From Bacteroidota bacterium (GTDB lineage Bacteria > Bacteroidota > Bacteroidia > Bacteroidales > UBA4417), in the NCBI GenBank assembly GCA_037128115.1, contig JBAXXB010000001.1, positions 1 through 62,699 on the forward strand: DNA of 62,699 bases, written 5' to 3'. The first letter of the stretch is position 1. Each line of letters starts with the position of its first letter. The translations under genes and the position numbers were made by a program. Positions 3,782 through 31,494 of the stretch are shown here, in pieces. Below the pieces are notes generated by a model. That model did not search any database. It worked only from the letters and a program-made list of their open reading frames with translations, and was not told where the DNA came from.

Positions 3782-3847
3782 CAAAGGACTATCATTTTGT
3801 ATCCCAAACTGTTATACAATTCTCCCAAAGAGTTACATCATTCACAC
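3782..3847 (-). promoter_or_regulatory. promoter module copy 5: 38-bp conserved motif (3847-3810) plus TTTG box 28 nt downstream
   Basis: Minus-strand GTGTGAATGATGTAACTCTTTGGGAGAATTGTATAACA. The G of TTTG is at 3782, exactly 28 nt past the motif end. It sits 66 nt upstream of ATG 3744. Confidence 0.55.
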
Positions 3848-4220: not shown

Positions 4221-4286
4221 GTGTGAATCATATAACTATGTTGAAAAGTTATGTAACAGAAACCAGAGTAATGAAACGGAATTTTG
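4221..4286 (+). promoter_or_regulatory. promoter module copy 1: 38-bp conserved motif plus -7-like box GAATTTTG
   Basis: GTGTGAATCATATAACTATGTTGAAAAGTTATGTAACA at 4221-4258. The G of TTTG is at 4286 (28 nt past the motif). ATG at 4338. Confidence 0.6.
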
Positions 4287-4337: not shown

Positions 4338-6767
4338 ATGCAGGAAATAAAAAAAACAACGATCCCACTGTACCGGAGCATGATAGCTTCTGTCAGGCTC
4401 CATTGCCGGTTCATACTGCACCGGATCAGCAAGCATAAATTGCTAAAAGCACTGCTAATACTGGCAGGTGTAGTTATTGTTTTTGCAGGGCTGGTAATCT
4501 TGTTTATATCACCTATTACAAAATACCTGGTCGAAAAGTATGATTTGAAATATACCGGTCGGCAGATCACCATGGACTGGGCATATGTGAACCCGTTTAC
4601 CGGCAATTTTCATTTCGAAAATCTTAAAATACATGAATATCACAGTGACAGCATTTTCCTTTCAGTAAAAGGAGTGAATGCAAATATTACCATGCGTAAA
4701 CTGTTCGCCAGGGCCTATGAAATAAGTGAGCTAACACTCAATAAACCTCAAGGTATTATTATCCAGGTTGATAAGAATCTGAATTTCGATGATCTTATCA
4801 GAAAATTTACTTCCAAAGCAGATTCTAAAAAAATCACCACACCTGTCCATTTTAGTATTCTCAGTATCAAAATTACTGACGGGGAATTTTATTACCGCGA
4901 AAGGGTTACCCCTATAAATTACTTTATCACCGGCGTAAATATCGAGATCCGGGGAATTCATTGGGATTCAGATATAATCGCTGCAAAATATTCCTTTGTG
5001 TCGGGTATTGGAAGCGGAAACATGAAGGGTGATTTTACCATCAATATTAAAACCCTGGATTACCGGCTAGCCGTCGTCGCACAGAAATTCGACCTGGAAA
5101 TCCTGGAACAATACCTGAAAGAACTGACCAACTTTGGATATTTCAACGGAAACATCGATGCGGATCTGAATGTTAAAGGCAGTTTTAATACCGCGGAGAA
5201 TGTAACGTTCAGGGGGCTGCTGGCTATCAATGATTTCCGAACCGGTAAAAAGCCAGGTGATAATTATGCCTCTTTCCAAAAGCTGACCCTGGCCATATTC
5301 GAACTCAGTCCCAAGAATCATAAATATCTTTTCGATTCGGTTTCCCTCAATAACCCATATTTCAAGTATGAGCAATATGATTACCTGGATAACCTTTCAC
5401 GTATGTTTGTTTCGGAAGCGAGCAAGGCAGAGGTTGGCCAGACCCCAGGCGCAAAATTTAACCTGGTTCTCGAAATCGGCAATTATATAAAACGGCTGTC
5501 GAAGAACTTCTTCCGAAGCAATTATAAGATCAACCGGCTCGCCATTTATAGTGGTAACCTGGAATATAGTGACTTTTCGATGAGCGAAAAACTCTCCATA
5601 CATTTAAACCCACTATATATTCTGGCTGATTCCATTACTAAGAATCGAAAAATGGTAAGCGTTTCCTTTAAATCAGGCATCATGCCCTATGGAGATGTAA
5701 CTGTAGCATTAAGTATAAATCCGAACGACAGTTCAGACTTTGATCTTGACTTCCACCTTCGAAAGATACCTGCTGCCATGTTTAATCCCTATTTGATTCA
5801 TTACACTTCCTTTCCAGTCGATAGGGGTACTCTTTCATTAAGCGGGAAATGGACTGTGCGAAACGGAAATATAAAAAGCGATAATCACCTGATCCTGATC
5901 GATCCCCGTTTAACAAAACGGGTCAAAAACAAAGAAACAAAATGGCTGCCTATGCGCCTGATTATGGCTTTTACCCGCGAGCGCGGCAATGTTATTGATT
6001 ATGAGGTTCCTATAAGCGGTGACCTGAAAAATCCGAAATTTCACCTGCATGACGTCCTTATGGATGTGCTCGGGAATATTTTTATTAAACCGGCTACCAC
6101 TCCATACCGGATGGAAGTGAAAAATACAGAAACTGAAATCGAAAAATCGCTTACCATGAAATGGCCCATGCGAAAAAGTTCACTTACCAAGGAGCAGGAA
6201 AAGTTTATCAAAAAAATGGCTGAATTCCTGGCAGACAATCCTGATGCAACTATAACGATTATGCCACAGCAGTATACCGCGAAAGAAAAAGAATACATAC
6301 TGTTTTATGAAGCTAAAAAAAAGTATTTCCGGACGGTAGCACATAGAAACGAATCGTATTTCAGCAATATAGATTCCGACAAGGTCGAAAAAATGTCGGT
6401 TAAAGATGCTCAGTTTATACGATATCTAAATATACATACAGCTGATTCAATGCTGTTTACGGTCCAGGACAAATGCACAACCTTACTTGGTGTGAGTTTT
6501 GTAGAGGCTAAATATAAACAACTGAAACATGACAGGAAAACCGCCTTTATAGCTTATTTTAAGGAGAGAAATTTGGAGAACCGGATACGATTTTCAGCTG
6601 AAAAGGACATGATTCCTTATAATGGATTTTCGTACTACCAAATCATTTACAAGGGTGAATTCCCTGACGATATCATGAAAGCCTATATTAAAATGAATGA
6701 ATTAAATGACCAGGCGCCCCGAAACCTGTTTCAAAAATACCGGAGAAAATACAAGGTCAAACAATAG
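4338..6767 (+). CDS. DUF748/AsmA-like membrane-anchored protein
   Basis: 809-aa ORF with one N-terminal TM helix (LLILAGVVIVFAGLVILFI), followed by a long beta-rich region with repeated units resembling DUF748/AsmA-type proteins. The family call is from memory only and has not been HMM-checked. Confidence 0.5.
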   Translation: MQEIKKTTIPLYRSMIASVRLHCRFILHRISKHKLLKALLILAGVVIVFAGLVILFISPITKYLVEKYDLKYTGRQITMDWAYVNPFTGNFHFENLKIHEYHSDSIFLSVKGVNANITMRKLFARAYEISELTLNKPQGIIIQVDKNLNFDDLIRKFTSKADSKKITTPVHFSILSIKITDGEFYYRERVTPINYFITGVNIEIRGIHWDSDIIAAKYSFVSGIGSGNMKGDFTINIKTLDYRLAVVAQKFDLEILEQYLKELTNFGYFNGNIDADLNVKGSFNTAENVTFRGLLAINDFRTGKKPGDNYASFQKLTLAIFELSPKNHKYLFDSVSLNNPYFKYEQYDYLDNLSRMFVSEASKAEVGQTPGAKFNLVLEIGNYIKRLSKNFFRSNYKINRLAIYSGNLEYSDFSMSEKLSIHLNPLYILADSITKNRKMVSVSFKSGIMPYGDVTVALSINPNDSSDFDLDFHLRKIPAAMFNPYLIHYTSFPVDRGTLSLSGKWTVRNGNIKSDNHLILIDPRLTKRVKNKETKWLPMRLIMAFTRERGNVIDYEVPISGDLKNPKFHLHDVLMDVLGNIFIKPATTPYRMEVKNTETEIEKSLTMKWPMRKSSLTKEQEKFIKKMAEFLADNPDATITIMPQQYTAKEKEYILFYEAKKKYFRTVAHRNESYFSNIDSDKVEKMSVKDAQFIRYLNIHTADSMLFTVQDKCTTLLGVSFVEAKYKQLKHDRKTAFIAYFKERNLENRIRFSAEKDMIPYNGFSYYQIIYKGEFPDDIMKAYIKMNELNDQAPRNLFQKYRRKYKVKQ

Positions 6768-6929
6768 TAAGCTGTCAACTCAGGCTCACCGGGCCAAATC
6801 CTAAAGGCGAACCTTTTTATTAACATCATACTAATTGATATTCTGATCATTAGCCGCATATTACCTTTCATTGAGGCTGAGAAATCAGAAATGATGGCTA
6901 GTTAAGTTGCATCCACAACCTCAGCCGAA

Positions 6930-6995
6930 GTGTGAATCATGTAACTAATTCAAAAAGTTCTGTAATACTTTACCAATCATACCAATGCATCTTTG
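6930..6995 (+). promoter_or_regulatory. promoter module copy 2: 38-bp conserved motif plus -7-like box CATCTTTG
   Basis: GTGTGAATCATGTAACTAATTCAAAAAGTTCTGTAATA at 6930-6967. The G of TTTG is at 6995 (28 nt past the motif). ATG at 7128. Confidence 0.6.
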
Positions 6996-7127
6996 CTCCA
7001 GGAATTTCCGGGGGAAAAGATACTACGTTAAACAACCTTTTTCACAACCTGTACATAAGGTTTTAACCGGGTAAGGTCTTGAGTCTTTACTATTAATCCG
7101 GTCATTTTTACAATACAAGCATGCTAA

Positions 7128-7922
7128 ATGGCAATTTTAACCCACAGGAAGCACCTGTTTTCAAAAGGTACCGATTTGTTTTTTACAGGTGTCAGCAGCG
7201 CCTATAAATTTAGCGCGTTGTTTTTCAAAGAAGCCTTCAAAAAACCTTTTCACCTCCGCGAAGTCATAAACCAATGCTTCGAAGTAGGCTTAAAATCGCT
7301 GGCATTGATAACGCTTACGGGTTTTATTGTCGGAATCGTATTCACCAAGCAATCGCGTCCCTCGCTCGAAGATTTCGGCGCAACCTCCTGGCTTCCTTCC
7401 CTGATTGGCATAGCTATTGTCAGGGCATTGGGGCCCCTGGTAACTGCGCTTATCTGCGCGGGTAAAGTCGGTTCCAGTATAGGTGCGGAACTGGGTTCCA
7501 TGAAAGTAACCGAGCAGATTGATGCCATGGAAGTATCGGCTATTAATCCTTTTAAGTACCTGGTAGTCACCCGGGTGATCGCTACTACAATCACCATACC
7601 TGTTCTGGCATTGTATTGCAGTTTTGTCGGGCTTATGGGTTCGTTTGTAAATGTACACAGCGAGGAATCCATGAGCCTTATCACCTTCTATCAAAGTGCA
7701 TTTTCAAGCATCAGCTTCCTCGATATTTTTACTTCTGTTTCCAAATCGCTGGCTTATGGTTTTACAATTGGCATGGTAGGAGCGTACAAAGGATTTAATG
7801 CCACCCAGGGTACCCGTGGGGTGGGCAAAGCAGCGAATCAGGCGGTGGTACTTGCCATGTTCCTCATTTTCCTTGAGGAACTCATCATTGTACAGGTAGC
7901 CAACTGGATCAGATATTTTTAA
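7128..7922 (+). CDS. mlaE: MlaE-family ABC transporter permease (set 1)
   Basis: 264 aa. Hallmark GPLVTALICAGKVGSSIGAELGSMKVTEQIDAMEV, and multi-TM. Confidence 0.9.
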   Translation: MAILTHRKHLFSKGTDLFFTGVSSAYKFSALFFKEAFKKPFHLREVINQCFEVGLKSLALITLTGFIVGIVFTKQSRPSLEDFGATSWLPSLIGIAIVRALGPLVTALICAGKVGSSIGAELGSMKVTEQIDAMEVSAINPFKYLVVTRVIATTITIPVLALYCSFVGLMGSFVNVHSEESMSLITFYQSAFSSISFLDIFTSVSKSLAYGFTIGMVGAYKGFNATQGTRGVGKAANQAVVLAMFLIFLEELIIVQVANWIRYF

Positions 7923-7923
7923 G

Positions 7924-8703
7924 ATGATGAAAAAAAATAGTCAACATATTGCAAACAAGAAGGAGCTGGCGATTTCCATCAGCGGGCTATATAAGTCGTT
8001 CGCTGAATTACACGTTTTAAAAGGCATTGATTTTCATCTTTTTAAAGGAGAGAATGTGGCTGTGCTCGGAAAATCAGGTACCGGGAAATCGGTATTGATA
8101 AAAATTATAGTGGGTCTGCTCAAGCCCGACAAAGGTGAAGTGATAGTGCTGGGAGAACACGTTGACAAACTGGCCCGCAAAGAGCTGGATGCCTTGCGGT
8201 TGCGCATCGGGTTTTCGTTCCAGAGCAGTGCCTTGTACGACAGTATGAATGTGTTCCAGAATCTCGCCTTCCCTTTAACCATGAACAGGAAAAGCCTTAC
8301 TAAACAGGATATTAAAGAGGCTGTCGAAGAAGTGCTGGAAGCAGTTGGGCTAAGTTCTAAAATAAACGAACTGCCCTCTGATCTTTCGGGAGGGCAACGC
8401 AAGCGAATCGGCATCGCAAGGACTTTAATCCTGAAACCCGAAATCATGTTGTACGACGAACCCACCTCGGGCCTCGACCCGGTTACAAGTGCCGAAATCA
8501 TTCAGCTAATCAATGAAGTGCAACAGAAATACAATACCAGTTCAGTCATTATAACCCACGATCTCACCTGTGCTAAAAACACGGGCAATCGTATTGCCAT
8601 GCTGCACGACGGCAGGTTTCTAAAAGTCGGGACTTTTAAAGAAGTATTCGATACGGACAATGAGCAGATAAAAGGATTCTTCAATTACAATTTTATACAA
8701 TAA
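7924..8703 (+). CDS. mlaF: MlaF-like ABC transporter ATP-binding protein (set 1)
   Basis: Walker A GKSGTGKS, signature LSGGQRKR, Walker B MLYDEPTSGLD. Starts 1 nt after the mlaE stop. Confidence 0.9.
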   Translation: MMKKNSQHIANKKELAISISGLYKSFAELHVLKGIDFHLFKGENVAVLGKSGTGKSVLIKIIVGLLKPDKGEVIVLGEHVDKLARKELDALRLRIGFSFQSSALYDSMNVFQNLAFPLTMNRKSLTKQDIKEAVEEVLEAVGLSSKINELPSDLSGGQRKRIGIARTLILKPEIMLYDEPTSGLDPVTSAEIIQLINEVQQKYNTSSVIITHDLTCAKNTGNRIAMLHDGRFLKVGTFKEVFDTDNEQIKGFFNYNFIQ

Positions 8704-8706
8704 GCC

Positions 8707-9684
8707 ATGAATGATTCACCTAACAGGCACGCCATATTAGTGGGCTTTTTCGTCAGCATAGGAATACTATTCTTTGTTGGTGGAATCCTCATGGTTGGTA
8801 ACCTGCATGAGACTTTTAAACAAAAAATGGAAGTAATTTCCCTGTTTAATGATGTAAACGGCCTGCAAAAAGGGAATAATATCTGGTTTTCGGGTGTTAA
8901 AATAGGGACGGTGAGCAGTGTTCATTTTTATGGAAAATCGCAGGTGCAGGTCCTGATGAAGATTGAGACTAAGGCCCAGCAATATATTCGCAAAGACGCG
9001 AAGGTTAAAATAAGCAGCGACGGAATCATAGGGAATAAAATACTGATTATTTACGGCGGCTCACCCGGGTTTGCCGAAGTACAGGACGGGGACACCCTTA
9101 ACGTGGAAAAGACATTTTCGACAGAAGATATGATTAATACCCTTCAGGAAAACAATAAAAACTTCCTGGCCATCACCACCGATTTTAAAGTAATCAGCAA
9201 GAGCCTGGCAGCGGGTGAAGGCACTATCGGGAAATTACTTAAAGACGATGCAGTTTATACTAACATCAATGCTGCCACGGCTTCGCTCAGGCTTGCCTCA
9301 GTAAAGGCTGATCAGTTAATAGGTTCACTCGGCACCTTCAGTAAAGGGCTGAATAAAAAAGGAACTCTGGCGAATGAATTAACAACCGACACCTTGGTTT
9401 TCAATTCTGTAAAAGCTTCGGTTTTTCAATTGCAAAAAATGGCTGACACGGCTTCTTTGTTTATAACCAATCTGAAAAAGGCAGGCAGCAATCCCAATAC
9501 TACGGTAGGTATACTGCTTCACGATGAAGAATCGGGTGCCCGCCTGAAAGAAACCATTAAAAACCTGGAAAGCAGTTCTGTGAAGTTAAACCAGGACCTG
9601 GAAGCCGCACAGCAAAATATATTGCTCAGGGGATTTTTCAGGAAGAAAGCCAAAGCCGCCAGTACCGATTCCATCGGTCATTAA
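8707..9684 (+). CDS. mlaD: MlaD/MCE-domain protein (set 1)
   Basis: N-terminal TM helix, then an MCE-like beta core (FNDVNGLQKGNNIWFSGVKIGTV), a long helical C-terminus and a KAKAA tail. Tightly packed after mlaF. Confidence 0.85.
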   Translation: MNDSPNRHAILVGFFVSIGILFFVGGILMVGNLHETFKQKMEVISLFNDVNGLQKGNNIWFSGVKIGTVSSVHFYGKSQVQVLMKIETKAQQYIRKDAKVKISSDGIIGNKILIIYGGSPGFAEVQDGDTLNVEKTFSTEDMINTLQENNKNFLAITTDFKVISKSLAAGEGTIGKLLKDDAVYTNINAATASLRLASVKADQLIGSLGTFSKGLNKKGTLANELTTDTLVFNSVKASVFQLQKMADTASLFITNLKKAGSNPNTTVGILLHDEESGARLKETIKNLESSSVKLNQDLEAAQQNILLRGFFRKKAKAASTDSIGH

Positions 9685-9730
9685 TAAAATACCCTTAGGA
9701 TTATTATCCATTCAAAGGGTCTGCCCCCAC

Positions 9731-9796
9731 GTGTGAAGCATGTAACTTAATTCAAAAGTTATGTAATGCTGTGGCAGGCAAACCCCTATACTTTTG
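9731..9796 (+). promoter_or_regulatory. promoter module copy 3: 38-bp conserved motif plus perfect -7 box TACTTTTG
   Basis: GTGTGAAGCATGTAACTTAATTCAAAAGTTATGTAATG at 9731-9768. The G of TTTG is at 9796 (28 nt past the motif). Confidence 0.65.
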
Positions 9797-9885
9797 TATA
9801 TAAATTATACTGCACAGATAAGCAGTTTTTTACCTCAGAAAAACAAAAATCCTTATCCGGAGCAAAAAAACAAAACACAGACGAC

Positions 9886-10758
9886 ATGCCATCAATCAAG
9901 AAATTTAATCCTGTAATACCTGTAAAAAAGGCCATTCCCAAGATCCGGCATGCCACAGTACAGTCAATGAGCAGGCTAAGTGAAAAAACCCTGGCAAAGA
10001 CTGAAGAAGCAAATAGTTTTCTGACTGATTTTGCAGATGTTATCTTGTTTATCGCACAAATCTTCAGAGCAACATTTTCCCGCGACTTCGAATTTAAAGA
10101 ATTCCTGCGTCAATGTTACCAGATCGGGAATAAGGCCCTCCCACTGATCTCAGTCACCGGGATCATTATGGGACTGGTTCTTACTATTCAATCACGTCCT
10201 GCACTTGTTACTTTCGGAGCTGTGACCTTGCTTCCGGGCATGGTTACGGTATCGCTAATCCGGGAAATGGGGCCCGTAATTACGGCACTTATTTGCGCGG
10301 GGAAAATCGGGTCCGGGATGGGAGCTGAATTAGGCTCGATGAAAGTGACCGAACAGATTGACGCCATGGAAGTCTCGTCGACGAATCCCATGAGATTCCT
10401 GGTTGTCACCCGCGTGTTGGCCGCAACGCTGATGATACCTTTCCTGGTTTTATATGCCGACGCGCTGGGGATACTGGGAAGTTGGGCAGGAGCAAACCTG
10501 AAAGGTGAAGTATCCTTTACCTTGTTTTTCTCCCAGGCTTTCAGCCATATCCGGTTTATTGACTTCCTGCCGGCCTTCATTAAGACTTTCTTTTTTGGTG
10601 CAGTTATCGGGCTGGTTGGCTGTTATAAGGGTTACTATGCAGGCCGTGGAACCGAAAGCGTTGGCATAGCCGCTAATTCAGCGGTAGTATTGGCTTCCCT
10701 CCTTGTGCTGGTGGTTGATGTAATTGCAGTACAAATAACTGATATGCTGGTATTATGA
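9886..10758 (+). CDS. mlaE: MlaE-family ABC transporter permease (set 2)
   Basis: ORF 9766..10758 trimmed to ATG 9886, because the track start overlaps the promoter motif. Hallmark GPVITALICAGKIGSGMGAELGSMKVTEQIDAMEV. Confidence 0.85.
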   Translation: MPSIKKFNPVIPVKKAIPKIRHATVQSMSRLSEKTLAKTEEANSFLTDFADVILFIAQIFRATFSRDFEFKEFLRQCYQIGNKALPLISVTGIIMGLVLTIQSRPALVTFGAVTLLPGMVTVSLIREMGPVITALICAGKIGSGMGAELGSMKVTEQIDAMEVSSTNPMRFLVVTRVLAATLMIPFLVLYADALGILGSWAGANLKGEVSFTLFFSQAFSHIRFIDFLPAFIKTFFFGAVIGLVGCYKGYYAGRGTESVGIAANSAVVLASLLVLVVDVIAVQITDMLVL

Positions 10759-11540
10759 GCATTCCGAAGGCAGATACCCAGGTGACAGGCACCGGTAAAA
10801 AGGAGGTCGACGAAGCAGTTGTTGAAATCAACAACCTGAAGAAATCGTTTGGTACGCAGCAGGTTTTGATTGACGTGTCGTTGAAACTCTACCAGGGTGA
10901 AAACCTGGTGGTCCTTGGCAAGTCGGGCAGCGGAAAATCGGTACTGGTAAAATGCATAGTCGGCTTACTGAATTCGGATGGCGGTTCTATCGACGTTTTC
11001 AGGAAAAACGTCCTGGAAATGAACGACAAAGAATTGGGCGAATTACGTCAAAAAGTCGGCTTCCTGTTTCAAAGCGGCGCTTTGTACGATTCCATGACCG
11101 TGAAACAAAACCTGGAATTCCCCCTGAGGCGGATAAAAAGAGATCTCTCAGAAATCCAAATCAACGCCAAAGTAGCCGAAGTTCTCGAAAATGTCGGGCT
11201 GGCTGATGCTTTGAATAAAATGCCGGCACAACTTTCGGGAGGCATGCGAAAACGGATCAGCCTGGCCCGCACACTCATCGTGGATCCCCGGATTATGCTT
11301 TATGATGAACCTACAACAGGCCTCGATCCCGTTACATCGGATGAGATAAGTTCACTCATGAACGAAATCCGCGAAAAATACCATACCTCATCCATCATTA
11401 TCACGCATGATATAAAGTGTGCCAAAAATACGGCCAACCGCATGATCATGCTCCAGGAAGGTGCGGTTTACATGGAGGGAACAGCAGCCGAATTCGAAAA
11501 TTCATCCGACCCGCAGATCAGGGCTTTCTTCAAATGGTAA
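10755..11540 (+). CDS. mlaF: MlaF-like ABC transporter ATP-binding protein (set 2)
   Basis: Walker A GKSGSGKS, signature LSGGMRKR, Walker B MLYDEPTTGLD. ATGA overlap with the mlaE stop. Confidence 0.9.
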   Translation: MSIPKADTQVTGTGKKEVDEAVVEINNLKKSFGTQQVLIDVSLKLYQGENLVVLGKSGSGKSVLVKCIVGLLNSDGGSIDVFRKNVLEMNDKELGELRQKVGFLFQSGALYDSMTVKQNLEFPLRRIKRDLSEIQINAKVAEVLENVGLADALNKMPAQLSGGMRKRISLARTLIVDPRIMLYDEPTTGLDPVTSDEISSLMNEIREKYHTSSIIITHDIKCAKNTANRMIMLQEGAVYMEGTAAEFENSSDPQIRAFFKW

Positions 11541-12301
11541 CAGATAATTACAATTTAAAATCAAAATCAGCCATGGATTCACATACTCAAAAATTCAAAG
11601 TGCGCCTCGGCCTCTTCGTTGCCGGGGGACTGGCTCTATTTGTACTGGCCGTATTTATTATCGGGAAGCAGAAAAACCTGTTTAACCCGGTATTTAAGTT
11701 AACAGCCACTTTTTATAACGTGGGCGGCCTGCAGGTTGGAAATAATATCCGGTTTTCGGGTATCAACGTGGGAACTATAGATAATATATTCATTATCAAC
11801 GATTCAACGGTAAGGGTTGATATGCTCGTCAAACAGGAAGTGAAGAAATTCATAAAGTCGGACTGCGAAGTAGCCATTGGCTCGGAGGGGCTGATTGGGG
11901 ACAGGCTGTTAATCATTACCCAGGGTAGTTCAGCAGCCGCCGTAGTGAAAGAAGGTGAGCGTCTTGCATCAACAGAGCCCATAGAAACAGATGCCATTAT
12001 GGCCAGTTTGCAGGTTTCGGCTAGCAATGCGGAAATTATCACCCAGCAGCTGGCCTATATAATGATTAAAATAAACAGCGGAAAAGGAACACTCGGCAAA
12101 TTAATACAAGACTCAACCATAGCGGGGAACTTAAACCAAACTATTGTGAATCTTAAACAGAGTTCCAAAGGCCTGGACGAAAACATGAATGCAGCCAAAC
12201 ACAGTATTCTTTTCAAAGGCTATTTTAACCGTAAGGCTAAAGCTGCCGAAAAAAAGAAGGATGACTCCAACCAGAAAAAAACAGAAGACGGCAAGAAATA
12301 A
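11534..12301 (+). CDS. mlaD: MlaD/MCE-domain protein (set 2)
   Basis: ORF 11417..12301 trimmed to ATG 11534 (overlaps the mlaF stop; alternative ATG 11573). TM helix LGLFVAGGLALFVLAVFII, MCE core FYNVGGLQVGNNIRFSGINVGTI, and a KAKAA lysine-rich tail like set 1. Confidence 0.8.
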   Translation: MVTDNYNLKSKSAMDSHTQKFKVRLGLFVAGGLALFVLAVFIIGKQKNLFNPVFKLTATFYNVGGLQVGNNIRFSGINVGTIDNIFIINDSTVRVDMLVKQEVKKFIKSDCEVAIGSEGLIGDRLLIITQGSSAAAVVKEGERLASTEPIETDAIMASLQVSASNAEIITQQLAYIMIKINSGKGTLGKLIQDSTIAGNLNQTIVNLKQSSKGLDENMNAAKHSILFKGYFNRKAKAAEKKKDDSNQKKTEDGKK

Positions 12302-12363
12302 AAGTAAATATAAAATTTGCGATACCTGGAATCACATGGTAACACAAACATATTCATCCCTAT

Positions 12364-14211
12364 ATGCAAAAGTGGTTAAAACTTTCTACCATTCTTATGC
12401 TTGTTTCATTGCTGACGAGCAACTTAACTTTTGCCCAACTACCTACACTAAAAACTGATTCAACTCATATTTATAAAAACATCGAGGCATATTCCGGGCG
12501 AAGGAAGTATACCCGCCTGGTTTACCTTCTCATCTTCAACCCGGCCGCGAAAAGCCGGGATGGCAAAGAAATAAAAAATACACCTCACAAGAGACTGATA
12601 TACAGATCATACGCTACCTATGAAGGGAAACACATAAGGTATATTATTATCCAGACACTGGATCCTTTTGGTTATTCAATAGCCGATACCAACTATAGCC
12701 CACAGTACTATTTGCCACGAACAGGCAATAAGCTGCATGTAAAATCCCAGCCCATTGCCATCCGCAACTTGTTGCTGATCAGGCAGAATCAAATTTTCGA
12801 CTCTTTACTGGTCAAAGAATCGGAGCGCCTTATACGAAGTCAGAGGTATGTACGTGATGTTTCATTCCAGGTAAATGCCGTTCCTGGCAGTATCGACTCT
12901 GTTGATATTCTAATACGTGAAATGGATAACTGGAGTATAGTTCCTGCAGGAGCTGCGTCTGCTTCACATGTCAATGTTAACCTGCTGGACAGGAACTTTA
13001 TGGGATTAGGACATGAATTCCAGAACGATGTGGCATGGAACCGCACTTCAGGCAACTATGCATATAGCACAAGATATTTTGTTCCAAATATAGTTAACAC
13101 CTATATTAACAGCACTTTACATTATGGATCAGACGAATCCGGGAATTTTAGAAAAAGCATAGATATTAACCGGCCGTTTTTCTCACCTTTTGCCAGATGG
13201 GCAGCAGGAATCAACCTGACAAAGCAAAACCGCCGGGATTATGTCTACACGTATGATTCTCTTTATTTACTAAGCCGATTAAAATTTAATGCCCAGGATT
13301 TCTGGGTAGGAGATGCAGTTCAACTGTTTAAGGGCAACACCGAAAATAGTCGTTCAACTAATTTCATTACTGGAATACGATATTACCGTATCCGTTATCT
13401 TGAAAAACCAGCCGATGTGCCAGGTACACAGAATATATATTCAAATGAGAATTTATATTTGGCAAGCATTGGCATATCCACGCGAACATACCTGCAGGAC
13501 AGGTATATTTTCAAGTATGGGGTGCCCGAAGATATCCCTGTAGGGCGCGCTTTTAGCCTGACCGGAGGCTACCAGGGAAAAAATAATTCGGGCCGTTTTT
13601 ACCTGGGGGCACGTATTTCAGTCGGTTACTATTACCCGTGGGGCTACCTGGGCTCGAATTCAGAAATCGGGACTTTTTTGGCGAAATCGAAAGCCGAGCA
13701 AGGCACAGCCTCGGTGAGTGCAGTGTATTTTACTCCTCTTCTTGAAATCGGTGTATGGAAAATCAGGCAATTTATCAAGCCACAGCTTATCATCGGCATA
13801 AACCGATTCGCTGCCGATTCACTTACACTGAACGATGGATATGGAATCGACGGGTTTAACAGCATTGCCCTTACGGGCAGCAGCCGCCTGCTTTTTACCG
13901 TGCAAACCCAATCCTATTCACCCTGGAATGTACTGGGGTTCCATTTTGGCCCGTTTATCAATTATTCTTTTGGCGTCCTGGGCAATACCTCTTCCGGGTT
14001 CAAAAACAGTAACATATTCTCGCAAATAGGACTGGGCGTACTCATCAAGAACGAAAACCTGGTAATCAATTCCTTTCAAATATCTTTTGCTTTTTACCCT
14101 GCTATCCCCGGAACAGGAATTAATGTTTTGAAAATGAATACACTAAGAACTTCCGATTTCGGTCTCAGGGATTTCGAAATCGGAAAACCGGCTATAGTAG
14201 TATATCAGTAG
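12364..14211 (+). CDS. POTRA-containing Omp85/BamA-family-like outer-membrane protein
   Basis: Signal peptide MQKWLKLSTILMLVSLLTSNLTFAQ. POTRA-like segment (VKESERLIRSQRYVRDVSFQV...DSVDILIREMDNW), then LLDRNFMGLGHEF and a long Tyr/Gly-rich beta region. 62 nt after mlaD with no intervening motif. Confidence 0.6.
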   Translation: MQKWLKLSTILMLVSLLTSNLTFAQLPTLKTDSTHIYKNIEAYSGRRKYTRLVYLLIFNPAAKSRDGKEIKNTPHKRLIYRSYATYEGKHIRYIIIQTLDPFGYSIADTNYSPQYYLPRTGNKLHVKSQPIAIRNLLLIRQNQIFDSLLVKESERLIRSQRYVRDVSFQVNAVPGSIDSVDILIREMDNWSIVPAGAASASHVNVNLLDRNFMGLGHEFQNDVAWNRTSGNYAYSTRYFVPNIVNTYINSTLHYGSDESGNFRKSIDINRPFFSPFARWAAGINLTKQNRRDYVYTYDSLYLLSRLKFNAQDFWVGDAVQLFKGNTENSRSTNFITGIRYYRIRYLEKPADVPGTQNIYSNENLYLASIGISTRTYLQDRYIFKYGVPEDIPVGRAFSLTGGYQGKNNSGRFYLGARISVGYYYPWGYLGSNSEIGTFLAKSKAEQGTASVSAVYFTPLLEIGVWKIRQFIKPQLIIGINRFAADSLTLNDGYGIDGFNSIALTGSSRLLFTVQTQSYSPWNVLGFHFGPFINYSFGVLGNTSSGFKNSNIFSQIGLGVLIKNENLVINSFQISFAFYPAIPGTGINVLKMNTLRTSDFGLRDFEIGKPAIVVYQ

Positions 14212-14255
14212 GATAAAAATATTGTCAGCCTTCGCTTTTGCTGCAGTTAGCCCAT

Positions 14256-14321
14256 GTGTGAATGATATAACTTTTAGCAAAAGTTATATAACACTTGTTT
14301 GAGCCCAGCATGTTAGTTTTG
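14256..14321 (+). promoter_or_regulatory. promoter module copy 4: 38-bp conserved motif plus perfect -7 box TAGTTTTG
   Basis: GTGTGAATGATATAACTTTTAGCAAAAGTTATATAACA at 14256-14293. The G of TTTG is at 14321 (28 nt past the motif). ATG at 14398. Confidence 0.65.
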
Positions 14322-14397
14322 TCAGCAGAATGGAAAGAGCCGCTCTTTTAGAGGAATCCTGGCGTTTTCCTGAATTTATCCCTAAATATGGTAAAAA

Positions 14398-15945
14398 ATG
14401 AAAACTTCGCTACTGCTAGTCCTTTTCCTGGTACTTGCCCAGTTACTTTCCGCCCAAAATACGAAGGCACCCGACTCGATAATACCTGCTAAAGGGAATA
14501 CCGACAAACAATTGGAAAAAATTATAGAGACCAAAACTGCCAGGCATTCCGATTCACTGGGAAATGAGCCAAAAAAGAGCGCACTCATCGATACTACCAT
14601 CCAGAATAAATACGGGGATCTGCTTAACGATGACACTGCATACAATTTAAGGCACCCAATCTGGAAACCTTCATTACAGGTGCTGGGTGCCGTGGTTCTG
14701 ACCTGGTCGATTGACAGGCTTATTCTGAACGCTGACTATGCCCATATAGGGATTGCATCGTGGAAATATAATATGAAATATGGCTGGGAATGGGACAATG
14801 ATCGTTTCGGGGTGAACTTCGTGGGCCACCCCTATTCCGGGACGCTTTCCTATAATGCAGCTCGGTCGAACGGATATAATTTTTACCAGTCCATTCCTTT
14901 TGCCGTTGCCGGAAGCCTGATGTGGGAATATTTCGGGGAAAATACACGCCCTTCCTGCAACGATATAATCAATACACCCGTCAGCGGGGTGTTTCTGGGT
15001 GAAATCCTGTATCGCTTAAGCTCGAATATCTTAGATGATAGGACGAAAGGGACAAACCGGGTGCTGAGGGAAATCGCGGCTGGCATAATCGATCCTATGC
15101 GGGGTTTTAACCGCCTGATGCAGGGAAAATGTTCCAGGGTCACCAACGTGGAAGTTTATCAGAAGGAGCCTCTTAATATTTCCCTGTATTCAGGTCTGCA
15201 CAGGAAAAACACCGGCACAAGCATTTCGAGCGGTACCGGAACCAACAGCATGATGGTGAATGCACAGTTCGATTACGGGAATCCTTTCGAGATCCGTAAA
15301 CGTAAGCCCTTCGATTTTTTCAAACTCCGGGTCGATTTGGATTTTGGAGTAGGACGAAAATTCCTGGATGATATAACCGGTTATGGAATACTGTTTGGCA
15401 AAAACAGGCAAATCGGCAATCTGGCCATCCTGGTCGGGGGATTCCAGTATTATGATTATATGGATAATATGACCTTTGAGCTTGGAACCATCGGTTTGGG
15501 TGGCGGGTTGTTCACAAAACTTCCAATCAATTCAAGTATAGACCTTTACACGAACCTCCACCTGGCACTAGTACCTTTTGCTGGGAACAGCACCCGGTTT
15601 GGCCCTGACACTTCGCAACTAAGAGACTATAATTACGGTGCCGGGTTAGAAGGAAAGTTTGAAAGCATAATAAATCTGGGTAAATTTGCAACAGCTTCAC
15701 TGATCTATTACTATTATATGGTTCACACCTACGTGGGTGCACCTGGTAATAATATCATCAGTATTCTAAAACCAAGAGTAACTGTAAAACTGTTCAAACA
15801 ACTAAGCCTGGGCTTTGAGCATTTCATTTATTTCAACGACCGCTACCTCGACGATTTTTCCGCTATTCATTCGGTACGGACCGAACAGAAAATATTTCTT
15901 CAACTTTACCTGGAAGATAAACAACGCAAAGGACATTACAATTAA
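14398..15945 (+). CDS. DUF3943-like secreted/outer-membrane protein
   Basis: Signal peptide MKTSLLLVLFLVLAQLLSAQ. The segment FGVNFVGHPYSGTLSYNAARSNGY resembles the DUF3943 HP-motif region. The C-terminal half is beta-rich. Confidence 0.55.
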   Translation: MKTSLLLVLFLVLAQLLSAQNTKAPDSIIPAKGNTDKQLEKIIETKTARHSDSLGNEPKKSALIDTTIQNKYGDLLNDDTAYNLRHPIWKPSLQVLGAVVLTWSIDRLILNADYAHIGIASWKYNMKYGWEWDNDRFGVNFVGHPYSGTLSYNAARSNGYNFYQSIPFAVAGSLMWEYFGENTRPSCNDIINTPVSGVFLGEILYRLSSNILDDRTKGTNRVLREIAAGIIDPMRGFNRLMQGKCSRVTNVEVYQKEPLNISLYSGLHRKNTGTSISSGTGTNSMMVNAQFDYGNPFEIRKRKPFDFFKLRVDLDFGVGRKFLDDITGYGILFGKNRQIGNLAILVGGFQYYDYMDNMTFELGTIGLGGGLFTKLPINSSIDLYTNLHLALVPFAGNSTRFGPDTSQLRDYNYGAGLEGKFESIINLGKFATASLIYYYYMVHTYVGAPGNNIISILKPRVTVKLFKQLSLGFEHFIYFNDRYLDDFSAIHSVRTEQKIFLQLYLEDKQRKGHYN

Positions 15946-15979
15946 AATGATTACTGACTATATAAAAAAGCAATAAAGT

Positions 15980-16840
15980 ATGTGGCACAAATTCAGCCTG
16001 TTACTGTTGTTATTCTTCTCCATTCATCCAGGCTTATTCGCCCAGGACCTGAAGAAAGATTCCTTGCCGGAAACCAAAGCTGAAAAGATTCAGGAAAAAA
16101 AATTATATAGCTTTTCCCAGTTTGGCCGCGAAACAGTTCTTTTTGCGAAACAACCTACCTTCTGGAAAGGTGGCGATTGGCTTAAACTGGGTGCAGTAGC
16201 AGCCGCAACGCTTGCCCTTATGCCTTTGGATCAACCCATGATGAACGCTACCCAGGGGGAACAGCGTTATTATTATAGCATAGCCGTTGTGGGGGGAAGG
16301 ATTTACGGCGAATGGTATTCTATTGGTAGTGTTGCAGGTGCATTTGGTGTTTATGGGCTACTTGCTCACGATAATGCTTCCAAAAAAATATCTATCGAGT
16401 TACTACAGGCTGGTATTTACGCCGAAGCACTAACTGAAATGCTGAAAATCGGAATTGGCAGAGCCCGGCCCTTGACCGGGGAGAGTGCATTTACTTTCCG
16501 GCCTTTTACTTTTTTTGATGATAATTTTCACTCCCTGCCAAGTGGGCATGCAACCAGTGCCATGGCGCTTTCGACGGTGATGTCGCGCCATGCGCGTACC
16601 ACGGCTTTTAAAATTTTAGCCTATGTACCCGCCGGGTTCACCTTATTCTCGCGAATATACCAGAACAAGCACTGGCTTTCGGATGAATTCCTGGGAGCAA
16701 CCATAGGTTACTTTGTCGGCAACTGGGTGGTGGATCTGCACGAAGGTAAAAGGCACAGGATAAATGTAACTTCGTTGTATCCTACTACGGTCGTTGCCTA
16801 TAGCCTCAACCAGGTACCTGCCAAAAAGCAAGTCCGCTAA
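15980..16840 (+). CDS. PAP2-family (type 2 phosphatidic acid phosphatase superfamily) membrane phosphatase
   Basis: All three PAP2 motifs are present: KIGIGRARP, PSGHAT, SRIYQNKHWLSD. 34 nt after the DUF3943 gene. Confidence 0.9.
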   Translation: MWHKFSLLLLLFFSIHPGLFAQDLKKDSLPETKAEKIQEKKLYSFSQFGRETVLFAKQPTFWKGGDWLKLGAVAAATLALMPLDQPMMNATQGEQRYYYSIAVVGGRIYGEWYSIGSVAGAFGVYGLLAHDNASKKISIELLQAGIYAEALTEMLKIGIGRARPLTGESAFTFRPFTFFDDNFHSLPSGHATSAMALSTVMSRHARTTAFKILAYVPAGFTLFSRIYQNKHWLSDEFLGATIGYFVGNWVVDLHEGKRHRINVTSLYPTTVVAYSLNQVPAKKQVR

Positions 16841-17006
16841 GCGGTTATCATACAATGGATAAATTATGTATTTCTGATAGTACGCCTGGGAATACTGAAA
16901 TTTATTCTTTCTTCTTATTTCCTGAAGTCTCCGTTGAAAGTTTACAACTTAGCACGACAATATAATAAACAAGGCAATTAACAGGGGCCAAAAAGCGATG
17001 AGGATT

Positions 17007-17660
17007 CTAAACCCAGTTATGTACAACCCAATTGTGTTGCCGGGCTGCCTTTTCTAACCGTCTATCCGGGCTGACACAAACAGCATGACCCACAGTAAGC
17101 AGTGCAGGCAAATCGTCGATTGAATCGGCATAATAGGAGGAATTTTCTTGTAATAAATTGCTGGCACTAAGGTACTCGTTCATTCGCCTGAGCTTTTCAT
17201 TTTTAAAGCAGAACCCGGTCTTTGTCCTCCCTGTATAGCGTTGATTTACTACTTCCAACTCTGAACAAATAACATCGTCCACCCCTAAATGCTTTCCCAC
17301 AGGCAAACAAATTTCGGCCAGTGCCGACGAAAGAATCACCACCAGATTTCCTTTTTCTTTATGCATTCTGATTTCAGTGATTATTTCACGGCGTATAGCT
17401 GGAAGAAGATCCTTTTCAACTACTTCATCACACAAAGTTTCAAGTTCAATAATCGTCGATTCAGCTAACCAGCCACAGAGCTTTTCAATAATTTTCAATG
17501 AATCAATTAAATGTGCCTTGTACAATATTAACAGGTAATATGTATGTATCAGTTTCCCAGTTGACAATAACCCGTTTTTATACCCCCTTCTCAGAAGGGC
17601 TTCCCCACTGTTAATTTTTATAATGGTATTGTCGAGATCGAAAAAAGCAACATATTCCAT
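17007..17660 (-). CDS. HAD-IB family hydrolase/phosphatase
   Basis: Motif I FFDLDNTII, motif IV YADSIDDLP, cap region typical of subfamily IB. Confidence 0.8.
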   Translation of the reverse strand: MEYVAFFDLDNTIIKINSGEALLRRGYKNGLLSTGKLIHTYYLLILYKAHLIDSLKIIEKLCGWLAESTIIELETLCDEVVEKDLLPAIRREIITEIRMHKEKGNLVVILSSALAEICLPVGKHLGVDDVICSELEVVNQRYTGRTKTGFCFKNEKLRRMNEYLSASNLLQENSSYYADSIDDLPALLTVGHAVCVSPDRRLEKAARQHNWVVHNWV

Positions 17661-17670
17661 TTCTATCCAA

Positions 17671-18603
17671 TTAATTTATCTTCAAAAAGTGATTTCCTTC
17701 AGGGTTGAAAATAATGTTCATAGCATCAGGCAGAATACTTATTTCAAAATGCTTTGCAAAATGCAATTCCCCATCCAGGTGAAACGGGACCTGAAGACTG
17801 AATTCAATATCTATTTTGCTGGTCTGGTAATAATTCACCTTTTTATCCTGCAGGTGGGCTCCTTTGGGCACTTTGAGCAAAATTCTAAACCGTTCGGGAA
17901 GGGAAAGTTTTTTGATCATGCACACGTCCAATAGCCCATCGTTAGCAATTGCCTTGGGAGTAAGAAAAAAACTTCCTGCAAAGCGCCTGCCGTTGGATAC
18001 CGTGTTAATGAAACAATCCGTTTCTTGGTCGTTTCCTGCCGATAAAACCGTCATTCTTTTTTCATTATAAAACAGCAATGTTTTAATAATGTGATAGATA
18101 TATTTGTGTTTCCCGCCTTTCTTTTCTTTACCGGGCGAAGTATAGTTTTCAGTAGCAACCTGAGCATCGAAACCTAAACCCATTCCATTAAAGAAGGGAA
18201 ATCCATTGCACAAGCCAACATCTATTTTGGAAGTTCTTTTTTCGAATAAGATTTCCCAGTCTTTTTCTTCAAAGCGATTGGGAAAGCCTAAAATCTGAAT
18301 AAAATCATTGCCGGTACCAGCCGGGACCAAACCCAAGGTAACTCCTTTTTTATGCAAAAGCGCCGAGGCAATTTCATTAAACGTGCCGTCGCCCCCAACC
18401 CCTACAATATACTTTGAGCCGCTGCCTGCGTAATACCTTGCCAGATCGGCAGCATGTCCCGGTTTTTCTGAACATACCACTTCAGCATCCACTGCATATT
18501 TTTGTATCATTTCCACTATTTTAGGCTTGAGAGTTATTGCATACCCACTGCCGGCGGTCGGATTGATAATAAAAACCCATTCTTTGCTTTGCATGTTCTC
18601 CAT
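17671..18603 (-). CDS. diacylglycerol-kinase-family lipid kinase (YegS/BmrU-like)
   Basis: FIINPTAGSG and GVGGDGTFNE motifs. ORF 17671..18657 trimmed to ATG 18603 to avoid overlap with the upstream acyltransferase. Confidence 0.85.
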   Translation of the reverse strand: MENMQSKEWVFIINPTAGSGYAITLKPKIVEMIQKYAVDAEVVCSEKPGHAADLARYYAGSGSKYIVGVGGDGTFNEIASALLHKKGVTLGLVPAGTGNDFIQILGFPNRFEEKDWEILFEKRTSKIDVGLCNGFPFFNGMGLGFDAQVATENYTSPGKEKKGGKHKYIYHIIKTLLFYNEKRMTVLSAGNDQETDCFINTVSNGRRFAGSFFLTPKAIANDGLLDVCMIKKLSLPERFRILLKVPKGAHLQDKKVNYYQTSKIDIEFSLQVPFHLDGELHFAKHFEISILPDAMNIIFNPEGNHFLKIN

Positions 18604-18637
18604 TGGTTGAGGTTTTGTGTTTCTTTGAACCGTAGTG

Positions 18638-19348
18638 CTATAGGCAGCCGGATTCAAGTATTTTTTTCATTTCATTAATGATCTCCTTGTCGGTTTTTAC
18701 TTTAAGCACATTGAAATTTATAGGTTTATTGATAACCACACTGAGTTTAGCATTGAAATTAATATGAAACCGGTTTTTAGGTTTTAATGAATAGAAACCA
18801 TTGAGCGTAACGGGCAGTATGTCAGCCTCCGAACCTCTCAAAATATAAATAAAACCCCTGAAAAAATTATTCATACTGCCATTAAGTGTTCTAGTCCCTT
18901 CCGGGAACATGGCTATAGTGCATTGTTTTGATTTCTCGATTATTTCATCCATCATCAGCCTGGTATTCTTAATCGTAGGCTCCTTAACTGGGATATAGTC
19001 GACCATTTTCAGAATCTGGTTGAAAACAGGTACTTTCATCAGGCGTTCATGACCAAACCAAGCCACCCCGGGATAGAACGACATAATGGCCATGATATCG
19101 AACAGGCTGGCATGATTTGCTATGATAATGTATCGCTTGCTATTGGAATAATTTTCAATCCCATAAATTTTCAATCTTTTTCCTAAAACCCAAAATACCG
19201 AATTTGCCCAGAATTGTACTAAATATTTTACATTTTTTTTTAAGCGGAGATAGGCAAACGGAAGTATAATAATTACCAGAATTGCAGTTTGAACATACAG
19301 AACTGCAAATGCCAGTATTGAAATGAATTTATAAATTCGGGTTCTCAT
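18638..19348 (-). CDS. plsC: 1-acyl-sn-glycerol-3-phosphate (lysophospholipid) acyltransferase
   Basis: NHASLFD (HX4D) and FPEGTR motifs, with an N-terminal TM helix. Confidence 0.85.
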   Translation of the reverse strand: MRTRIYKFISILAFAVLYVQTAILVIIILPFAYLRLKKNVKYLVQFWANSVFWVLGKRLKIYGIENYSNSKRYIIIANHASLFDIMAIMSFYPGVAWFGHERLMKVPVFNQILKMVDYIPVKEPTIKNTRLMMDEIIEKSKQCTIAMFPEGTRTLNGSMNNFFRGFIYILRGSEADILPVTLNGFYSLKPKNRFHINFNAKLSVVINKPINFNVLKVKTDKEIINEMKKILESGCL

Positions 19349-20693: not shown

Positions 20694-20732
20694 AGTAAGG
20701 GGTCTTAGGCACTATAAGGATAAAATGTATTT

Positions 20733-22859: not shown

Positions 22860-22961
22860 ATAAACAAATTGATTGGTTTGTGGGAATTAGTTTGTATCCG
22901 TAGTTAATTGATTGAATTGCAGCTAATTTCATACTTAATAAAGTACTGCCAGTTTCGCATT

Positions 22962-25556: not shown

Positions 25557-25643
25557 ATCTGTAATTTGCATAAAGTGAAGTCAAAATCTGCAAGCAAAAA
25601 CGATGAACAGCAATAAACTGAGTGCGGTTTTTGAATTTGAAAT

Positions 25644-31306: not shown

Positions 31307-31379
31307 AGCCACTAATGGGACTCGAACCCACGACCTGCTCATTACGAATGAGCTGCTCTACCAACTGAGCTAAAGTGGC
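31307..31379 (-). tRNA. tRNA-Thr (anticodon CGT)
   Basis: Hand-folded: GCCACTT-TA-GCTC-AGTTGGTA-GAGC-A-GCTCA-TTCGTAA-TGAGC-AGGTC-GTGGG-TTCGAGT-CCCAT-TAGTGGC-T. One T-T mismatch at the base of the acceptor stem. No encoded CCA. Confidence 0.85.
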
Positions 31380-31412
31380 AAAAAAGCCTGCCTGTTAACT
31401 GCAAGCAGGCTT
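31380..31412 (-). terminator. intrinsic-terminator-like hairpin plus U tract between the two tRNAs
   Basis: Minus strand AAGCCTGC-(13 nt)-GCAGGCTT followed by TTTT. The tRNA-Thr 5' end starts at the next base. Confidence 0.55.
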
Positions 31413-31420
31413 ATTCGATG

Positions 31421-31494
<74 letters not shown>

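Follow-up and report, generated by a model that had tools for sequence, protein, structure and literature searches.

Many diderm phyla possess neither MlaA nor MlaC, and it is an open question how their MCE/Mla systems are linked to the outer membrane (PMC10665443). This question is raised in concrete form by a locus in the metagenome-assembled genome of a Bacteroidota bacterium (Bacteroidales, UBA4417; assembly GCA_037128115.1, contig JBAXXB010000001.1, positions 1 to 62,699 of the forward strand). We refer to this whole stretch of 62,699 nucleotides (nt) as the window; the locus is also present in 2 other assemblies. A first-pass annotation made from the sequence alone had described about 15 kb of the window as a dense envelope-lipid island, in which 2 tandem mlaE-mlaF-mlaD cassettes were accompanied by several other envelope genes. 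Our analysis shows that this island is only partly one unit. One promoter element is common to 5 transcription units located at 3.8-16.8 kb, and the evolutionarily stable core among these units is the second cassette together with the gene for a 615-amino acid (aa) protein, that is, an inner-membrane MlaFED-type transporter and an Omp85-like outer-membrane protein, hereafter called the barrel protein.

The gene content was tested with Pfam and NCBIfam on the open reading frames (ORFs) of the window, using the ORF coordinates of the first-pass annotation. The DUF748 gene, the 2 MlaE/MlaF/MlaD cassettes, the DUF3943 gene, the PAP2 gene and the convergent PlsC/DAGK/HAD operon that it had named were all confirmed by Pfam at these coordinates (Table 1). 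Both cassettes contained PF02405, PF00005, and PF02470, corresponding to the MlaE permease, the ABC ATPase and the MCE protein, and the sequence identities between the cassettes were 46% for MlaE, 53% for MlaF, and 31% for MlaD, in agreement with the proposal that they are paralogous. None of the proteins in either cassette reached the NCBIfam equivalog cut-offs for MlaD, MlaE, or MlaF. The mlaE2 ORF starts at position 9766 (330 aa), also in the public gene calls, but this position falls within the promoter element and its −7 box and can therefore not be the true start, which is probably 9886 (290 aa) or 9967 (263 aa). For mlaD2, the start of the public gene call at about position 11573 (242 aa) replaces the GTG codon at position 11417.

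The C-terminal tail that the 2 MlaD proteins were said to have in common was found letter by letter as quoted, and it is conserved in the orthologues of both. The helical region of both proteins and of all their orthologues (69 loci) ends with H-N/S-F/I-L-L-K/R-G-Y/F-F-K-K-K-A-K, after which MlaD2 extends by 20 to 35 K/E-rich residues, and a helical segment of the type GT(I/V)GxLLxD... is duplicated internally in MlaD1. No MlaA lipoprotein, MlaB (STAS), or MlaC domain was identified by Pfam among the scanned ORFs of the window. The absence of these components, which the first-pass annotation had pointed out, thus holds for the scanned ORFs, but it is no peculiarity of the locus, being the rule outside the Proteobacteria (PMC10665443).

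The conservation of the gene order was examined in one genome per GTDB species, which yielded 80 loci with a barrel protein 54% to 62% identical to the 615-aa protein; 1 additional locus brought the total to 81. These loci, which are numbered with the prefix L, come from Lentimicrobiaceae, Prolixibacteraceae, Mariniphaga, Draconibacterium, Odoribacter, and unclassified metagenome-assembled genomes of Bacteroidales. Synteny was scored by tblastn with all proteins of the window, and 77 of the 81 loci were testable, the other 4 being too short to judge. The genes mlaE2, mlaF2, mlaD2 and the barrel gene adjoined each other on one strand in 69 of the 77 testable loci, and the mlaD-barrel adjacency, for which the first-pass annotation had asked for a comparison of gene neighbourhoods, is thus kept in relatives. 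From mlaD2 to the barrel gene there are 63 nt in the window and a median of 72 nt in the relatives. Since the 4-gene block is retained while its flanks vary, the conservation exceeds what background synteny would give. The short gap, within which the promoter element has no copy, suggests that the barrel gene is probably co-transcribed with mlaE2F2D2, as had been supposed. A metagenome scan with the single barrel protein identified 4 loci.

The genes around this block were more variable. Cassette 1 was located upstream in approximately 20 to 26 related loci. In 14 of the 81 loci, no more than 10 kb separated the DUF748 gene from the barrel gene, and there were 3 arrangements, namely upstream of cassette 1, upstream of mlaE2 (directly in L065 and L070, farther away in L066), or directly downstream of the barrel gene (L048 and L075). 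The DUF3943-PAP2 pair was found near the barrel gene in only 2 loci, L006 and, inverted, L066. A gene for an inner-membrane protein of the YihY/BrkB family (PF03631 in L001, 11970-12911) came after the barrel gene, on its strand, in 36 related loci; by ORF clustering, it followed the barrel gene in 32 of the 66 loci whose downstream flank was long enough, and no promoter element separated the 2 genes. No YihY/BrkB homologue was identified in the window, the best tblastn match having an E-value of 0.05. The gene order in L006 is barrel, DUF3943, PAP2, and BrkB, and in the lineage of the window the DUF3943-PAP2 pair therefore looks as if it had been inserted into a barrel-BrkB operon. The YihY-family member YhjD of E. 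coli is reportedly tied genetically to the export of lipid IVA, and if so, the BrkB-like gene would be thematically consistent with lipid transport.

The first-pass annotation had called the 615-aa protein a POTRA/Omp85-like barrel and had made its reading dependent on matches to Omp85 or POTRA hidden Markov models (HMMs). With Pfam and NCBIfam, the protein gave no match at all even at E ≤ 10, including the models for Omp85 (PF01103) and ShlB (PF03865), and at this level the assignment failed; it was retained on the basis of the predicted fold and of matches just below threshold in relatives. Thus, the Pfam POTRA model matched 25 of 65 diverse relatives below threshold (best score 20.9 bits, cut-off 21.3) and the ShlB model matched 2 of the 65 (15.9 bits, cut-off 22.7), in both cases at positions that fit the model of the structure. 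This model was obtained with AlphaFold2 (AF2) from the alignment of the 65 diverse relatives and had a mean predicted local distance difference test score (pLDDT) of 88.9 and a predicted TM-score (pTM) of 0.83; it superseded a run on close homologues only, for which the pLDDT was 62. It consists of a signal peptide, 2 short helices at residues 33-57, a POTRA domain at residues 90-188, beta strands at residues 192-591, and a conserved tail of 24 residues. The POTRA domain has the order beta-alpha-alpha-beta-beta (E90-99, H116-134, H147-158, E163-172, E179-188) with a pLDDT of about 90, and the conserved tail (D598...P609) is not a strand; the protein ends in ...VVYQ. The best 50 Foldseek matches in the Protein Data Bank (PDB) all belonged to the Omp85 superfamily (BamA from 5 organisms, TamA, FhaC, and Toc75), with E-values from 8e-13 to 8e-10 and a probability of 1.0, and the poorer first model gave the same picture of Omp85-superfamily matches. 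The Omp85/TpsB loop-6 motif is (V/I)RG(F/Y); the 615-aa protein has a long loop at residues 480-506, ahead of the last 5 strands, with a conserved G-x-x-G-F motif (G494...G497-F498), a candidate counterpart of loop 6. Since the protein has no lipobox, it is not TamL. On the evidence of the model, we classify it as a divergent Omp85-superfamily-like protein and not as a member of the Pfam Omp85 family. More than 2700 homologues were identified, all labelled as hypothetical, and an exhaustive profile search gave 2958 clusters at 50% identity, 995 of them below 1e-30. The barrel proteins thus represent a large unannotated family in Bacteroidota.

A comparison of the intergenic regions identified a 66-bp element with the consensus GTGTGAAnnATrTAACT-N6-AAAAGTTnTrTAA-N26-TTTG, the TTTG of which is in the window the end of TACTTTTG, TAGTTTTG, GAATTTTG, CATCTTTG or GTCCTTTG, all resembling the Bacteroidota −7 box TAnnTTTG. 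Four perfect copies are located upstream of the DUF748 gene, mlaE1, mlaE2, and the DUF3943 gene, and a fifth copy with 3 mismatches precedes the divergent Big_5/Ice-binding gene. No further sites were found in the 62.7-kb window even if 7 mismatches were allowed, and the 5 sites compare with 0 expected by chance; no copy was present between mlaD2 and the barrel gene or ahead of the PlsC operon. The shared promoter motif of the first-pass annotation was thereby borne out, and it links the DUF748 gene, both Mla cassettes with the barrel gene, and the DUF3943-PAP2 pair. The shared element shows that 5 units are co-regulated: the Big_5/Ice-binding gene, the DUF748 gene, mlaE1F1D1, mlaE2F2D2 with the barrel gene, and DUF3943-PAP2.

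The 81 related loci (1.34 Mb) contained 267 element sites at 6 mismatches or fewer, compared to 0 in the reversed sequence, and sites anchored on the left half only still recovered the right half and the TTTG box independently. The element preceded the mlaE genes in 43 loci and the DUF748 orthologues in 10 loci, and it was also found upstream of Big_5-like genes. Where the barrel gene was detached from mla, the element was located directly upstream of the barrel gene (L033, L038, and L063) or upstream of a pair consisting of an extracytoplasmic function (ECF) sigma factor gene and the barrel gene (L015, L018, and L024). It was absent from the loci of distant members of the barrel family and almost absent from the Salinivirgaceae loci.

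Judged by its letters, the element may hold several transcription-factor sites in a row, at positions of roughly −30 to −65 in a housekeeping-type promoter; its consensus contains 3 TGTrAm repeats about 10 and 21 bp apart. A reading as an ECF-sigma promoter (TGTAAC-N16-GTAA) was not adopted because the conserved TTTG located 22 nt farther downstream fits the Bacteroidota −7 box better, although the element may yet be an alternative-sigma promoter. It was noted that the ECF sigma gene in L015, L018, and L024, which are loci without mla, bears the element and is located at about 9330-9930 directly upstream of the barrel gene, and that a 289-aa sigma-70-family gene is located near element copies in L046 (8088-8954) and as 3 tandem paralogues in L053 (12359-16400). 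These ECF and 289-aa sigma factors could be autoregulated sigma factors of the element's regulon. An Rfam scan of the window identified 2 tRNAs only and no RNA family on the element. A scan of the window for sigma-70 promoters and terminators was uninformative, with 38 promoter-like sites compared to 35.8 expected. The plain TAnnTTTG box was not enriched across the window either (52 sites, 68 expected) and is informative only together with the 36-nt element.

What the conserved block does can be read in several ways. We lean, with slightly less than even confidence in the reading as a whole, towards the view that the 5 units at 3.8-16.8 kb are held together by one element and that the barrel protein forms the outer-membrane end of the MlaFED2 route. 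The barrel protein would then take this role in bacteria without MlaA and MlaC, the MlaD hexamer, with its extended helical C-terminal region and tail, would reach the POTRA/N-terminal region of the barrel protein, and the barrel protein would give lipids access to the outer membrane, no direction of transport being assigned. The DUF748 protein may provide a parallel bridge-type lipid conduit, and the DUF3943-PAP2 proteins may be a pair for the remodelling of outer-membrane head groups that is switched on along with the transporters. Such a role of the barrel protein fits the literature, according to which MlaEFD is the ancestral core and MlaABC is mostly proteobacterial, and barrel-bearing MlaD is absent from the Fibrobacteres-Chlorobi-Bacteroidetes (FCB) group, so that the outer-membrane partner there is unknown (PMC10665443), while mlaEFD-tolC-tamB is one operon in the Negativicutes. 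Doubtful in our eyes is the more specific idea that a new Bacteroidales branch of Omp85 proteins, with one POTRA domain and possibly 20 strands, is the MlaFED terminus, in which case an Omp85 fold would serve lipid traffic and be switched on with an AsmA-like bridge and a lipid-remodelling pair through one element.

Several observations weigh against placing the barrel protein at the end of an Mla route. The TM-scores of the model to solved Omp85 proteins were low (0.27-0.48). Canonical Omp85 barrels have 16 strands, and DSSP assigned 20 beta segments within residues 192-591 of the model. Profile searches of the barrel family against PDB chains returned only noise with either of 2 alignments, and an hhalign comparison of the diverse alignment with the E. 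coli BamA barrel, an uninformative single-sequence template, gave a probability of 0.4. Eight loci inside the close clade had enough upstream sequence and yet lacked the mla-barrel adjacency. The members of the family at 28% to 48% identity, found in Cytophagaceae and other Bacteroidota and including the P0123 subfamily, were stand-alone genes with unrelated neighbours, and the Mla linkage is therefore a property of one large clade (at least 54% identity) and not of the whole family. The element occurs about once per 5 kb in the related neighbourhoods, where it also precedes genes for OmpA-like lipoproteins, L,D-transpeptidase-like proteins, small envelope proteins, and sigma factors; being placed ahead of so many other envelope genes, it points to a broad envelope regulon and not to a dedicated machine. 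The tail motif of the MlaD proteins is not a barrel-specific docking signal, because MlaD1, which has no adjoining barrel gene, has it as well. A physical coupling of the MCE transporter with the barrel protein is a plausible hypothesis. Finally, all characterised Omp85/TpsB proteins known to us (BamA, TamA, FhaC, and Toc75) handle polypeptides.

This last point, the stand-alone distant relatives, and the barrel genes that keep the promoter element when detached from mla would all be expected if the barrel protein acted alone, as an insertase or secretion pore of the general Omp85 type, with surface lipoproteins or some other protein as its possible substrate, that merely shares a regulon and a neighbourhood with mlaEFD2 in one Bacteroidales clade and has no direct role with lipids. 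The same element is moreover placed ahead of the large Big_5/Ice-binding lipoprotein gene, the product of which carries a CKKDEY sequence like a surface-lipoprotein export signal (LES), and related genes are found near the cluster in at least 11 loci. We nevertheless consider an independent barrel rather unlikely, since the 4-gene block is kept in 69 of the 77 loci despite variable flanks, the gaps in the mla-barrel unit are short and hold no internal promoter element, neither a TpsA-like gene nor any other obvious substrate gene consistently adjoins, and the Big_5 gene varies in position and strand. A pairing of the barrel protein with the DUF748 protein by the logic of TamA-TamB or TamL-TamB, with a co-regulation of anterograde and retrograde lipid routes accounting for the Mla genes nearby, appears improbable to us. 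It is true that TamB-type proteins pair with Omp85 partners and that DUF748 is related to TamB/AsmA (PMC4494059; PMC12045153), that the 2 genes are close in 14 of the 81 loci in 3 arrangements, and that both carry the element. But the DUF748 gene is nearby in only about 17% of the loci, compared to about 90% for mlaEFD2, it never forms a tight pair with the barrel gene under one promoter, the C-terminus of its product reads as charged, unlike a beta-signal, and the barrel protein, unlike TamL, is no lipoprotein and, unlike TamA, lies outside the Pfam Omp85 family. That the island is a chance run of envelope genes without functional unity is very improbable; the PlsC/DAGK/HAD genes, which are unlinked in relatives and lack the element, and the DUF3943-PAP2 pair, which adjoins in 2 relatives only, speak for it, whereas the 5 copies of the element exclusively ahead of island units, with 0 expected, and the conserved core adjacency speak against it. 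Chance juxtaposition is refuted for 3.8-16.8 kb and holds only for 17.0-19.3 kb.

Table 1. Features of the envelope-lipid locus in the window
Feature	Position	Strand	Basis or context
Large Big_5/Ice-binding lipoprotein gene	682-3744	-	Pfam, 7 Big_5 + Ice_binding-like domain
Shared promoter element, copy 5 (3 mismatches, TTTG at fixed spacing)	3782-3847	-	Upstream of the Big_5/Ice-binding lipoprotein gene
Shared promoter element, copy 1 (0 mismatches)	4221-4286	+	Upstream of the DUF748 gene
DUF748 protein, AsmA-like, 809 aa	4338-6767	+	Pfam DUF748, E 1.8e-74
Shared promoter element, copy 2	6930-6995	+	Upstream of mlaE1
mlaE1 (cassette 1)	7128-7922	+	Pfam MlaE, E 1e-67
mlaF1 (cassette 1)	7924-8703	+	Pfam ABC_tran
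mlaD1 (cassette 1), 325 aa, duplicated helical segment, tail LLRGFFRKKAKAA	8707-9684	+	Pfam MlaD
Shared promoter element, copy 3, Bacteroidota-type −7 box TACTTTTG	9731-9796	+	Upstream of mlaE2
mlaE2 (cassette 2)	9886 or 9967 to 10758 (ORF from 9766)	+	Pfam MlaE, E 1e-70
mlaF2 (cassette 2)	10755-11540	+	Pfam ABC_tran
mlaD2 (cassette 2), tail LFKGYFNRKAKAA, then K/E-rich end	11573-12301 (ORF from 11417)	+	Pfam MlaD
615-aa divergent Omp85-superfamily-like outer-membrane protein	12364-14211	+	Predicted fold; no Pfam/NCBIfam match
Shared promoter element, copy 4, −7 box TAGTTTTG	14256-14321	+	Upstream of the DUF3943 gene
DUF3943 ("YfiM-Griddle" Lipocone)	14398-15945	+	Pfam, E 1e-39
PAP2 phosphatase	15980-16840	+	Pfam PAP2
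HAD (convergent operon)	17007-17660	-	Pfam HAD
DAGK/YegS-like lipid kinase (convergent operon)	17671-18657	-	Pfam DAGK_cat + YegS_C
Acyltransferase, PlsC (convergent operon)	18638-19348	-	Pfam Acyltransferase

As for the other members of the island, the DUF748 protein scored 251.9 bits with the DUF748 model and has an N-terminal transmembrane or hydrophobic helix at about residues 35-58. The AsmA model gave 18.7 bits, below the cut-off of 29.8, and of the earlier description as a membrane-anchored DUF748/AsmA-like protein, the DUF748 match and the anchor stood but the match to the AsmA model itself did not; DUF748 is related to TamB and AsmA (PMC4494059). The DUF3943 domain (PF13084) was identified at residues 129-234 with 134.7 bits, and we infer from a beta-strand-like sequence pattern that the C-terminal half of this protein is a fused barrel. 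DUF3943 is the "YfiM-Griddle" family of Lipocone proteins, predicted to act on outer-membrane lipids at their head groups, and it has been found fused or linked to barrels of outer-membrane proteins and together with POTRA proteins and PAP2 phosphatases (bioRxiv 10.1101/2025.01.14.632903). The DUF3943-PAP2 part of the island is thus known biology. Membership in the PAP2 superfamily is as far as the phosphatase can be classified; with the NCBIfam model for LpxE it scored 17.1 bits against a cut-off of 177, and with no equivalog-level match it cannot be called a lipid A phosphatase LpxE or LpxF.

The 15-kb island as one unit accordingly holds for 3.8-16.8 kb, where the element is shared, but not for the PlsC/lipid-kinase/HAD operon, which the first-pass annotation had included. 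This trio was near the barrel gene in 0 of the 81 related loci and forms a conserved operon in a different context in a Salinivirgaceae relative. Lacking the element and being conserved separately elsewhere, it is a chance neighbour that is independent of the co-regulated set.

The Big_5/Ice-binding lipoprotein has 1020 aa from its true start at position 3744, and its signal peptide ends with LIGGC, followed by KKDEY, which resembles the export signal of surface lipoproteins in Bacteroidota. At least 11 relatives had Big_5-like genes in the neighbourhood of the mla-barrel cluster, at varying positions and on either strand, and the lipoprotein is peripheral to the lipid system.

Downstream of the island, 3 consecutive genes for signal-peptide proteins were identified on the minus strand at 19638-24209, encoding 351 aa (no Pfam match), 708 aa (TPR), and 415 aa (no Pfam match; 22962-24209), next to a gene for an OmpA-domain protein at 24324-25571. 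The 2 neighbours at 22962-24209 and 24324-25571, both of 415 aa, were compared as possible paralogues and found to be unrelated. Two adjoining tRNA genes are located at 31307-31494 on the minus strand. A polysaccharide biosynthesis locus on the minus strand at 40282-62538 encodes sugar-nucleotide dehydratases and epimerases, glycosyltransferases of families GT2, GT4, and GT8, an FkbM methyltransferase, a pyruvyl transferase, and a Wzx-like flippase, and it includes a gene for a beta-helix protein with a type IX secretion C-terminal domain (46093-47772). OmpA-like and two-component proteins are also encoded in the rest of the window.

New here are the association of an Omp85-like outer-membrane component with an MCE transport operon, a so far unannotated family of Omp85-like proteins, and a regulon element that is well defined. 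A literature search for a link between MCE and Omp85 or POTRA proteins, or for Mla in Bacteroides, returned no report in the collection searched. In bacteria without MlaA and MlaC, the outer-membrane partner of Mla has been missing, and the locus offers a concrete, genetically tractable, and testable candidate for it. Within one large Bacteroidales clade, the mla operon includes a member of the barrel family in about 90% of cases, and the family has escaped all HMM-based Omp85 censuses. The sharply defined cis-element marks an envelope regulon and can be used to find the regulator and the remaining members of the regulon. If the barrel protein acts independently, the family still extends the known diversity of the Omp85 fold in Bacteroidota.

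Compared to the E. coli Mla system (MlaFEDB, MlaC, and MlaA-OmpC/F), the window encodes the MlaE permease, the ABC ATPase, and the membrane-anchored MCE protein MlaD in the same order. It differs in that MlaB, MlaC, and MlaA domains were not found in the scanned ORFs of the window, that the MlaD proteins are longer (242-325 aa) with a helical extension and a conserved hydrophobic-basic tail, and that the cassette is duplicated and an Omp85-like barrel gene follows mlaD.

BamA and FhaC were the best structural matches of the barrel protein, with which they share the order of POTRA domain and barrel; its long loop with a GxxGF motif ahead of the last 5 strands may have a counterpart in them, and an NxxGxG turn after the second barrel strand was likened by eye to the DNWLGTG sequence of BamA. 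The barrel protein differs from both in TM-scores of 0.27-0.48, 20 beta segments, the lack of a profile-level match, and the 24-residue tail after the last strand. With TAM (the translocation and assembly module of Proteobacteria and Bacteroidota), in the form of TamA-TamB or TamL-TamB, the window shares a gene for an Omp85-fold barrel with POTRA in the vicinity of a gene whose AsmA-like product is anchored in the inner membrane and has been implicated in lipid transport. Unlike in TAM, the barrel protein has one POTRA domain instead of 3, no lipobox, and no Pfam Omp85 match, and its gene has its tight genetic partner in an MCE ABC transporter and not in the AsmA-like gene.

The YfiM-Griddle Lipocone operons (bioRxiv 10.1101/2025.01.14.632903) similarly combine DUF3943 with outer-membrane barrels, POTRA proteins, and PAP2 in contexts of outer-membrane lipids, whereas DUF3943-PAP2 adjoins a barrel of the type found in the window in only 2 of the 81 loci, and the pair is therefore an add-on to the Mla-barrel core and not a defining partner. 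The mlaEFD-tolC-tamB operon of Veillonella parvula and other Negativicutes (Grasekamp et al. 2023, PMC10665443) differs in its barrel, since that of the window is a separate Omp85-like protein with POTRA; it is not homologous to TolC, and it is not fused to MlaD as a 10-stranded barrel. With that operon, the window shares a minimal MlaEFD without MlaA and MlaC, the clustering of an outer-membrane barrel gene and an AsmA-like gene with it, and the idea of a trans-envelope bridge in place of a shuttle.

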